Shown here: positions 3,052 through 3,457 of the stretch, in pieces
How the letters are laid out: the number at the start of each line of letters is the position of its first letter
Numbering within the stretch: position 1 is the first letter of the stretch
Virus record (IMG/VR): IMGVR_UViG_2690316176_000003
Strand: one strand, 5' to 3'
Source of the DNA: a virus
Lineage: Duplodnaviria; Heunggongvirae; Uroviricota; Caudoviricetes
DNA: 6,637 nt
Position numbers and translations under genes: made by a program
Notes under the pieces: model-generated
Told to the model about the DNA's origin: nothing
The model's database searches: none
What the model saw: the letters and a program-made list of their open reading frames with translations, nothing else

Positions 3052-3081
3052 ATCCCCCTCACCCCACCAGCCCTGACAAAG

Positions 3082-3192
3082 TTAAGACGCGCCAGGCAGT
3101 GGAAAAGCAAATAGCAACCAGCATATTAGTGAAAATGAAATGCCGACGATTACACAGAGGATCTTCGCCAGCGTTATGAGCTTGTCTGACAT
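3082..3192 (-). CDS. Small hydrophobic peptide (36 aa, single predicted TM), unknown function
   Basis: Not in the ORF track (too short). ATG at 3190..3192 preceded by SD AGAGGA at 6-nt spacing; product MSDKLITLAKILCVIVGISFSLICWLLFAFPLPGAS; stop TAA at 3082..3084, just upstream of the Rz SD. Confidence 0.35.
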   Translation of the reverse strand: MSDKLITLAKILCVIVGISFSLICWLLFAFPLPGAS

Positions 3193-3204
3193 GCTTAATC
3201 CTCT

Positions 3205-3351
3205 TCACGATTTCAACGCAATGACCAGTTTTGCCAGCCCATACAGCATCGGAGACACAGCAATACCGACCGCCACCCACTTAATAGCAAAAGCCAGCGC
3301 TCTGCTGACGTCATCAGTTACAGGCGCTTTCAGTTCAAGGCCGTCTTTCAT
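3205..3351 (-). CDS. Small hydrophobic peptide (48 aa, single predicted TM), unknown function
   Basis: In-frame internal start of ORF-track ORF 3205..3465. Product MKDGLELKAPVTDDVSRALAFAIKWVAVGIAVSPMLYGLAKLVIALKS; its stop overlaps the SD of the 36-aa ORF. The longer upstream extension would read through a strong terminator hairpin, so the internal start is preferred; the SD is weak. Confidence 0.35.
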   Translation of the reverse strand: MKDGLELKAPVTDDVSRALAFAIKWVAVGIAVSPMLYGLAKLVIALKS

Positions 3352-3420
3352 AGTCAATCTCAACAGAATTCGTTTATACTTTCCTATGTTCTCCCTTGCC
3401 TTACTCAAGGTCAGAAACAC

Positions 3421-3453
3421 AAAACCCCGTTTGCGGCCAACAAACGGGGTTTT
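3421..3453. terminator. Strong bidirectional intrinsic terminator hairpin immediately downstream of the endolysin gene
   Basis: Perfect 13-bp inverted repeat AAAACCCCGTTTG / CAAACGGGGTTTT with loop CGGCCAA, flanked by A-run on one side and T-run on the other. It starts 5 nt after the endolysin stop. Confidence 0.6.
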
Positions 3454-3457
3454 ACTT

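Follow-up and report, generated by a model that had tools for sequence, protein, structure and literature searches.

The interval between the endolysin gene and the spanin gene Rz in a 6,637-nt stretch of viral DNA (IMG/VR record IMGVR_UViG_2690316176_000003; the whole stretch is hereafter called the window) contains two small genes, which we refer to as A and B. We consider it probable (roughly 0.6) that A and B are two separate elements, both of them genuine small inner-membrane genes of lambdoid prophages that have been inactivated in this copy, with a late role in tuning lysis. All lysis genes of the window are read on the minus strand, and coordinates refer to the full window. The interval itself (3457..3052, 406 bp) holds a hairpin with a 13-bp stem and two open reading frames (ORFs) of 48 and 36 amino acids (aa), features that an earlier description made from the letters of the window alone (the sequence-only reading) had listed and that are all present. 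That description treated the two ORFs as one tandem insert. Comparison with related loci separates them, B being evidently a backbone gene beside Rz, and A part of a mobile cassette to which the hairpin also belongs.

Both frames behave as protein-coding genes. Gene A (3205..3387) includes the 48-aa ORF 3351..3205, which starts at an internal ATG (3349-3351), and it matches phrog_1115 with an E-value of 2.7e-32 over residues 1-48, with further matches to phrog_4493 and phrog_3246. Gene B belongs to PHROG 4906 and is a pseudogene in the window (3059..3192). The intact 43-aa B protein matches phrog_4906 over its full length (E = 2.5e-27), and the 36-aa product of the window gives 3.4e-12 over residues 1-28 only, a restriction that is due to a frameshift described below. 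Selection was measured as the ratio of nonsynonymous to synonymous polymorphism (pN/pS), pooled over pairwise comparisons of 80 IMG/VR loci plus phage and genome loci, a sample with few distinct alleles (8-14). The in-frame ratio is 0.19 for A, with 0.14 over its membrane helix, and 0.31 for B; the off-frames of both genes give 0.9-3.9, and the values for the neighbouring holin, endolysin and Rz genes are 0.14, 0.12 and 0.45. This frame-specific purifying selection bears out the proposal of the sequence-only reading that the small ORFs are real genes for single-helix membrane proteins. The absence of a synonymous-site pattern had been named beforehand as an observation against coding, and the pattern is present. 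Translation of the frame 3205..3465 as one protein through the hairpin had been named as a second observation that would count against the sequence-only reading, and this frame is not conserved in relatives; the corresponding 86-aa reading was rejected, as the ORF of the relatives starts past the hairpin. A 109-aa ORF on the plus strand (3140..3469) is taken as an antisense shadow of A and B, with an off-frame pN/pS of ~1 or higher.

A has a conserved start 12 codons before the internal ATG, and translation from it gives a long form of 60 aa (59-66 aa across lineages). In E. coli, Salmonella and the remoter lineages inspected, this start is accompanied by a Shine-Dalgarno (SD) sequence and precedes a KYKR motif, the N-terminus of the long form reading M-x-x-Y-K-R-I-L-(L/M)-R-L-T-M-K-N-G..., and remote members of the family retain the motifs MKNGL-x-x-DAPVT-x-EI and YG[IV]A. 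Because the internal ATG also carries a conserved GAGG 6-7 nt upstream (GAGA in the window and in a common allele), two A products of 60 and 48 aa are possible. The best 19-residue hydrophobic window of A has a Kyte-Doolittle score of 1.9, and an AlphaFold model of the 60-aa form consists of a short N-terminal helix (residues 2-18) and a long C-terminal helix (23-59), the arrangement of a tail-anchored small membrane protein. A search of 5.8 billion proteins returned 95 clusters from E. coli and Salmonella, nearly all annotated as 'hypothetical protein'. The family appears to be narrow, since a profile search of 1.84 billion representative proteins gave only 14 clusters, none of which links to a known family.

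The conserved product of B begins MSDKLITLAKILCVIVGISFSLMLVA..., is 43 aa long with a single helix, and ends 2-7 nt before the Rz ATG; in the window, the ORF 3192..3082 (36 aa) has GAGGA 6 nt ahead of its ATG. The best 19-residue hydrophobic window scores 2.7 on the Kyte-Doolittle scale, and the AlphaFold model is one helix spanning residues 2-38 with a predicted local distance difference test (pLDDT) score of 89. The search of 5.8 billion proteins gave 115 clusters for B, from E. coli and Shigella, again nearly all 'hypothetical protein'. At the nucleotide level, tblastn finds B in 276 phage records, mostly phages carrying Shiga toxin (Stx) genes, and in many of them it is unannotated. The carriers include 933W-type phages, BP-4795, Min27 and many other Stx1- and Stx2-converting phages.

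Neither A nor B matched Pfam or NCBIfam, including the holin families, DUF2730 and HOK_GEF, and searches with PADLOC and against PDB sequences gave nothing meaningful. Full-text literature searches with the peptide and hairpin sequences returned no paper, and the A and B ORFs are unmentioned in a paper on Stx-phage genomics (PMC8136144). The two families are thus catalogued in PHROG but uncharacterised, and the copy in the window is a decayed member of each. An apparent kinship between A and B (profile-profile probability of 92%) was rejected as an artefact of two proteins in the A alignment (P0167 and P0185), which represent an 83-aa B-A fusion with two membrane helices that occurs in some genomes. 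As a separate observation, the helices of A and B behave as shuffling modules.

The position of B is nearly constant in the cassettes that carry it: in the 276 phage records it stands between endolysin and Rz, almost always immediately ahead of Rz. About 80 loci share the order holin, (YdfR), endolysin, a conserved spacer of ~88 nt, a variable slot, B and Rz/Rz1. B keeps its place whether the slot holds A or a gene labelled ant, and it stands beside Rz variants that are only 56-100% identical to the Rz of the window. This synteny identifies B as what is evidently a backbone gene of the cassette family, and the endolysin–Rz interval as what appears from the same comparisons to be a multi-slot insertion hotspot. 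The earlier suggestion that the endolysin–Rz junction is an insertion site agrees with the finding that relatives hold A or ant there and that K-12 Qin has no insert: neither A nor B was found in the Qin cassette, where rrrQ overlaps rzpQ. Two arrangements depart from the common order. In four loci (L017-L020, at ~2640-3575) a 311-aa DNA methyltransferase with a DPPY motif has been inserted precisely at the boundary of B and Rz, and its end coincides with the start of Rz. In phage vB_EcoS-783R2 (L005, 2032-2282) B comes first and a 38-aa A without the N-terminal domain second, the reverse of the usual order. The methyltransferase insertion marks a second moron slot of the interval.

The slot between the endolysin (R) spacer and B contains either the hairpin and A, or a different hairpin and a 189-aa ant gene, and the left junction, AAGTGAATAAA, is shared by both types of cassette. 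Among collinear relatives, what lies at this fixed junction is thus present, absent or replaced, which is the behaviour expected of a moron. With regard to the control elements of morons, the terminator of A lies upstream of the gene, and a sense promoter-like site is found only in one Salmonella locus (L095). The hairpin of the ant-type cassettes, seen in the R–ant spacer of Stx2 phage I (L003), has the form GAGGCACC-GTAAT-GGTGCCTT, followed by TGTCATTTCTG, and comes after AAGTGAATAAA; both kinds of insert therefore open with a hairpin at one shared breakpoint.

Unlike B, A is not tied to one place. Its contexts were established by exact-protein look-ups; a scan of genome contigs with the A alignment gave 32 pattern matches, 0 of them confirmed, and the contexts do not rest on it. 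A-family genes occupy nine or more different late-operon sites in prophages of Escherichia, Salmonella, Klebsiella and Serratia. In four unrelated cassette types their place is after the endolysin, and in some cases tandem paralogues occur there; these contexts include a Salmonella holin_2_3/lysozyme/Rz cassette without B, and two E. coli holin_8/holin_3_7 cassettes in which A comes after M15 and GH108 endolysins, beside other tail-anchored mini-ORFs. Further contexts involve tail and baseplate genes. At the ends of Salmonella prophages A comes after tail-fibre or SASA-esterase genes, in one case as a tandem pair of paralogues, and a metagenomic contig likewise has A behind a tail fibre. In a Serratia prophage A is flanked by a PG_binding_1-domain gene and by tail-sheath genes, in a P2-like prophage by tail-tube and chaperone genes, and in Klebsiella it precedes baseplate genes. 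This distribution is that of a mobile moron, not of a gene dedicated to lysis. Other lysis cassettes and prophage ends contain two to four tail-anchored mini-ORFs in a row (L091, 2862-3335; L097, 2307-2961; L089, 2805-3168); these share either the membrane helix of A or an N-terminal MIKAETT..GAD / DKY.RISVEANMK.G segment, and in L091 a lipoprotein-like ORF of 60 aa that has an LLVGC lipobox comes after them.

The hairpin of the window (hairpin 1, 3421..3453) has a perfect 13-pair stem and a loop of 7 nt; an A-run and a T-run at its two sides give it a terminator-like appearance on both strands. With its flanks it folds at -30.1 kcal/mol (z = -3.95), and 0 of 200 shuffled sequences fold as well. 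On the coding strand a G+C-rich stem of 9-13 bp is followed by UUUUGUGUUUCU, and by sequence the G+C-rich stem-loop and U-tract of an intrinsic terminator are present on both strands. Wherever the upstream sequence of A-family genes was inspected, a G+C-rich hairpin with A-run and T-run flanks lies 30-90 nt upstream, except that in L091 and L092 it is located upstream of a small ORF preceding A instead. The stems differ between lineages (CCCCGTTTG/CAAACGGGG, CCCCGA../..TCGGGG, GCCCCG/CGGGGC and CGCCCG/CGGGCG), each version folds well alone, and the alignment contains compensatory stem pairs. In this form, with different stem sequences, the hairpin recurs in 12 lineages. The recurrence argues that hairpin 1 is the 5' boundary of the gene A cassette.

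A second hairpin is predicted in the leader of A (3385..3421, minus strand), where the U-rich tract after hairpin 1 pairs with the SD region (AGGGAG) of the long form. Minimum-energy folding gives the same two-hairpin fold for four diverged leaders, namely two E. coli variants, a divergent E. coli-type locus (L065) and a Salmonella locus (L086), with z between -3.9 and -5.2, and the leader of L065 has one U-A to C-G compensatory change. The second hairpin is seen in the E. coli and Salmonella versions that belong to lysis cassettes. At the tail end of a Salmonella prophage (L095, 2415-2442, plus strand), no good U-tract accompanies the hairpin on the coding strand, and the hairpin overlaps a sense promoter-like site, TTGCGA-16-TATATT. 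The comparison suggests that A may be an autonomous unit in the Salmonella tail-end context but dependent on read-through in lysis cassettes.

A sigma-70-like scan places a predicted promoter inside A on the opposite strand. In the window it has a -35 element TAGTCA (3351-3356), a spacer of 18 and a -10 element TATACT (3375-3380) on the plus strand. Candidate sites opposite to A were called at the homologous position in L095 (TTGTCA, 18, TATACT), L093 (TTGGCC, 16, TATACT), L086 (TAGTCA, 18, TATACT), L101 and L103 (both TGGTCA, 18, TATACT), L102 (TGGTCA, 18, TATAAT) and L104 (TAGTCA, 18, TATAAT); with the window, this makes 8 of the 9 lineages tested. In 1.5 kb of each of L101-L104, no second promoter-like site appears on either strand. 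The -10 element overlies the x-Y-K codons; the residue before the tyrosine varies (K, Q or N) and the hexamer stays TATACT or TATAAT. Codons 1-4 of A are almost without synonymous variation (AAG in 10/10, TAT in 13/13, AAA in 10/11 and CGA in 12/13); codons 19-22 are each represented by three or four synonymous codons. Read in the antisense direction, the hairpin is followed by a good T-run in all lineages checked. A transcript from this promoter would cover ~3387-3465 of the plus strand (~75 nt), running from about the long-form start across the ribosome-binding site (RBS) to the hairpin. No publication covering the predicted RNA was found in the full-text searches with the peptide and hairpin sequences, and Rfam searches of the window and 12 related loci gave nothing at the gathering score, the sub-threshold matches all being driven by the terminator stem (the best, ohsC, with 21 bits against a gathering score of 50). 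Prophage small RNAs (sRNAs) upstream of lysis genes have been described in enterohaemorrhagic E. coli (EHEC) by Hfq cross-linking and analysis of cDNA (Hfq-CRAC; PMC4104026), and the supplements of that study contain nothing on the A/B locus.

The copy in the window is damaged. Lesions were identified by alignment with a segment of the E. coli ML35 chromosome that is 99.7% identical to the window and with phage PhiR12_3, plus the wider set of loci. There are three of them, all within 500 bp. In B, an extra TA near 3123-3126 (CACTAATATGCTGG vs CACTAATGCTGG in relatives) produces a +2 frameshift after codon 22 and converts the 43-aa protein to the 36-aa ORF; the ancestral stop is at 3059-3061, 7 nt ahead of the Rz ATG, and the frameshifted B no longer ends beside Rz. 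The gene is labelled 'frameshifted' in ML35 by the Prokaryotic Genome Annotation Pipeline (PGAP). The frameshift allele, represented by a 40-mer centred on the insertion, occurs in 14 of 5,426 complete E. coli genomes, 12 times on plasmids of 60-100 kb and twice on the chromosome, and the region as a whole was found in 989 of the genomes searched. The long-form start of A (3385-3387) reads ATA in the window and ATG or GTG in relatives, the ATA allele being found in 6 genomes.

The third lesion concerns the endolysin, whose stop codon has changed from TAA to CAA at 3542-3544, with 1 nt deleted downstream. A stop is kept at this position in 75 related loci (TAA in 74, TAG in 1), and CAA is found only in the window, which has also lost the 1 nt, and, again with this loss, in ML35, where PGAP calls the endolysin a pseudogene. 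As a result the endolysin measures 205 aa in the window against 177 aa in relatives, its 28 extra codons reaching up to the hairpin. In relatives that have the hairpin, it begins ~93 nt past the endolysin stop; the earlier statement that the hairpin directly follows this stop is accurate for the window, where it results from the lost stop and the deleted nucleotide, and does not carry over to the relatives. The same applies to the ORF lengths of 48 and 36 aa, the conserved forms being those of 60 aa (A) and 43 aa (B). The 28-codon extension (3458-3544, minus strand) matches phrog_34797 and phrog_30041, both of unknown function, which indicates that an ORF has been annotated within the ~88-nt spacer behind R in some phages; this spacer is conserved in A-type and ant-type cassettes alike. 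With a lesion in each of A, B and the endolysin, the module is a relic, and since the genes are damaged it is unlikely that A and B act as lysis-timing factors in this window.

These results lead us to propose how intact copies might work. The A cassette would combine a bidirectional terminator hairpin, a leader that hides the RBS, a tail-anchored peptide with two starts and an internal antisense promoter. A would be kept silent in a lysogen by the terminator together with the structured leader and the antisense RNA, whereas after induction the Q-modified polymerase would read through the hairpin and the sense mRNA would exceed the antisense RNA. A and B would both enter the inner membrane late, most likely tuning or assisting lysis, and B would be made together with the spanin late in infection, as its position just ahead of the Rz start implies.

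Several points weigh against this proposal. Homology of A or B to any characterised protein or RNA family was not found. Coupling between B and Rz is not obligatory, because the methyltransferase (L017-L020) or the truncated A (783R2) can intervene. A also sits far from lysis genes and Stx phages fill the same slot with ant, which argues against an obligatory role of A in lysis. The promoter scan works by matching a consensus; in the window alone it found 3 sites where 2.7 are expected, which is not above chance. The recurrence of the antisense motif in homologous lineages is no independent evidence; at L089, which is without a scorable -35, no site was called at the homologous position, and the nucleotide conservation may come partly from recent horizontal transfer or from dual-start signals.

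A more specific possibility, which we put forward tentatively, is that A and its hairpin constitute a new mobile cassette resembling a type I toxin–antitoxin (TA) system, with a dual-start peptide, a cis-antisense RNA of ~75 nt and a bidirectional terminator. At 48 or 60 aa, A has the size and hydrophobicity of type I toxins, which are membrane peptides of <60-70 aa. The mention of a type I toxin-like module or moron in the sequence-only reading gains comparative support for A. Searches of Pfam, NCBIfam and Rfam revealed no homology of A to Hok/Sok, Ldr/Rdl, Ibs/Sib, ShoB/OhsC or other toxin and antitoxin families. Such a cassette might insert in late-operon intergenic sites across Enterobacterales and, perhaps, act as a gated membrane-damaging factor that is freed only when late transcription floods the antisense RNA.

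It is more doubtful that both peptides are dedicated lysis regulators (antiholin-like, releasin-like or spanin-modulating) that act through helix contacts with the pinholin, the membrane-tethered endolysin or Rz, an idea that comes first among those of the sequence-only reading. The location of B between endolysin and Rz in 276 lambdoid phages would fit this role, as would the occurrence of A-family genes after the endolysin in four unrelated cassette types, some with tandem paralogues, and there is a precedent in the Mu releasin gp25, a small membrane protein that controls lysis (PMC9239132). However, A is also found at tail-fibre, tail tube/chaperone and baseplate sites, it is interchangeable with ant in the slot, the K-12 Qin cassette is without A or B, and neither peptide matches a holin family or DUF2730. 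Moreover, lambda and phage 21 lyse their hosts without genes of the A or B type.

For A, expression from the prophage with a function in lysogenic conversion, such as superinfection exclusion or modification of the host membrane, is a serious rival. As an account of both genes with no role in lysis it is unlikely. In its favour, A is patchy, it has moved among the classical sites of morons, a terminator bounds it, and in the Salmonella tail-end context TTGCGA-16-TATATT overlaps the hairpin. In the lysis cassettes, however, no sense promoter was found between the hairpin and A or B, the RBS of A is sequestered in the predicted leader fold, B is not preceded by any promoter or terminator belonging to it, and PADLOC gave no match.

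The sequence-only reading had also inferred from the terminator that transcription of Rz/Rz1 is uncoupled from that of holin and endolysin, so that the spanin genes would need a promoter of their own. Although the 9-13 bp stem with UUUUGUGUUUCU on the coding strand has the form of a working terminator, and the junction of ant-type relatives likewise has a terminator-like hairpin, though a different one, we regard this as improbable. The coding strand is without a promoter-like site from the hairpin to Rz; the genomes of PhiR12 and PhiR5, whose records list laboratory E. coli hosts, share the hairpin-A-B-Rz layout (phages with ΦR-type names occur in a panel of temperate phages tested by plaquing); and the hairpin travels with A into the middle of tail operons. 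Lambdoid late transcription is antiterminated by Q and reads through intrinsic terminators. Finally, the notion that the two ORFs arose by chance in non-coding spacer DNA, to which their very short length, the lack of a Pfam or NCBIfam family and the damage in the window might point, is very hard to reconcile with frame-specific purifying selection, conserved start codons with SD sequences, and dozens of protein clusters across Escherichia, Salmonella, Klebsiella and Serratia.

The other genes of the window (all on the minus strand unless noted) are those of a phage 21-type lysis cassette and its surroundings. The class II holin (4681..4475) matches Phage_holin_2_1 with E = 8.8e-33 and is followed by a YdfR/DUF1327 gene (4470..4126), identified by a family match and the ML35 annotation, and by the R21-type endolysin ORF with an N-terminal hydrophobic segment (4075..3458; Phage_lysozyme, E = 1.5e-25). 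Beyond the interval, Rz (3051..2584; PF03245, E = 4.5e-45) and the embedded Rz1 (2831..2646; PF06085, E = 4.1e-19) form a two-component spanin of i-spanin and o-spanin lipoprotein. PGAP annotates the ML35 segment in the order IS3-family copy, EspS, NleH pseudogene, PerC-family regulator, 'lysis protein' (Rz), frameshifted hypothetical pseudogene (B), 60-aa hypothetical protein, lysozyme pseudogene, YdfR, holin, ISEc20 and second IS3 copy. By this annotation the genes downstream of Rz are those of the 291-aa type III secretion system effector EspS, the NleH pseudogene and the PerC-family regulator (window positions 150-1025, 1437-1727 and 1807-2121); virulence cargo thus adjoins a dead lysis cassette.

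The ends of the window (1-118 and 6520-6637) are inverted 118-nt copies, 99% complementary, of an IS3-family insertion sequence (IS), and the 6.4-kb segment between them resembles a composite transposon. The transposase gene of ISEc20 (IS110 family; 5056-6252, plus strand) is located just upstream of the holin, at the place of the Q gene and late promoter region in a lambdoid prophage. No Q gene was found within the 6,637 nt, nor is a late promoter in view, because ISEc20 and an IS3 copy occupy the upstream side of the holin. Two further terminator-like hairpins lie upstream of the holin on the minus strand (4737-4763 and 4808-4825), one of them with an 11-bp stem followed by TTTTTTGTTTT; no Rfam family matched this region (4737-4825). 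EHEC prophages encode short convergent anti-sRNAs in the region upstream of the holin (PMC4104026).

The window itself is a decayed, IS-flanked prophage remnant in which the ORF lengths seen by eye are a product of decay, and the main interest lies in the comparative pattern around A and in the presence of B in Stx-phage lysis cassettes. B, frequently without annotation, is present in the lysis cassette of 276 mostly Stx-converting phage records. Lysis is the step that releases Shiga toxin, and a hitherto unrecognised membrane peptide produced together with the spanin could influence when toxin and phage are released and in what amounts. A appears as a very small gene that spreads as a self-contained unit with its own control elements. 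If the antisense RNA is real, A would represent a new family among phage-borne systems resembling type I TA systems, and it would offer a testable explanation for terminator hairpins inside phage late operons.

Several known systems share parts of this organization. In the P22 ant/sar system, a short antisense RNA arises from inside the 5' region of the gene and covers the RBS. The likeness to A would be one of architecture only, the proteins being unrelated, and the slot between R and B in Stx phages also holds a gene labelled ant. The antiholins lambda S107 and S21-71 are accessory membrane regulators of lysis, and A may resemble them in a dual start whose longer product has extra N-terminal positive charge. 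The Mu releasin gp25 (DUF2730; PMC9239132) is, like A and B, small, membrane-tethered and encoded in a lysis cassette beside a membrane-tethered endolysin. A differs from it in having a C-terminal helix instead of an N-terminal helix with a cytoplasmic domain and in lacking DUF2730 homology, and from releasin and antiholins alike in that it is not confined to lysis cassettes and has no holin-family homology; neither A nor B matches a holin family, while the neighbouring S gene matches Phage_holin_2_1 (8.8e-33). Lambdoid morons, defined for HK97 and HK022 (Juhala et al. 2000, cited in PMC4104026) and exemplified by lambda bor and lom, are likewise extra late-operon DNA that is present, absent or replaced at the same junction and bounded by a factor-independent terminator. 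Unlike theirs, the terminator of A lies upstream and not downstream of the gene, a sense promoter is predicted in one context, and the conserved promoter-like site is antisense. The closest precedent for A, by analogy, would be hokW-sokW of the Stx2 prophage Sp5, whose inner-membrane peptide is reported to assist phage-mediated lysis after induction (PMC8621323). The predicted layout of A likewise comprises a peptide, a structured leader, an antisense promoter and a terminator. There is no sequence relation between the two (no HOK_GEF match and no Rfam family for A), the membrane helix of A is C-terminal rather than N-terminal, A has two candidate starts, and its antisense RNA and any toxicity are predictions. 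Both, however, are small membrane peptides of lambdoid Stx-type prophages with a short cis-antisense RNA over the initiation region, predicted in the case of A.

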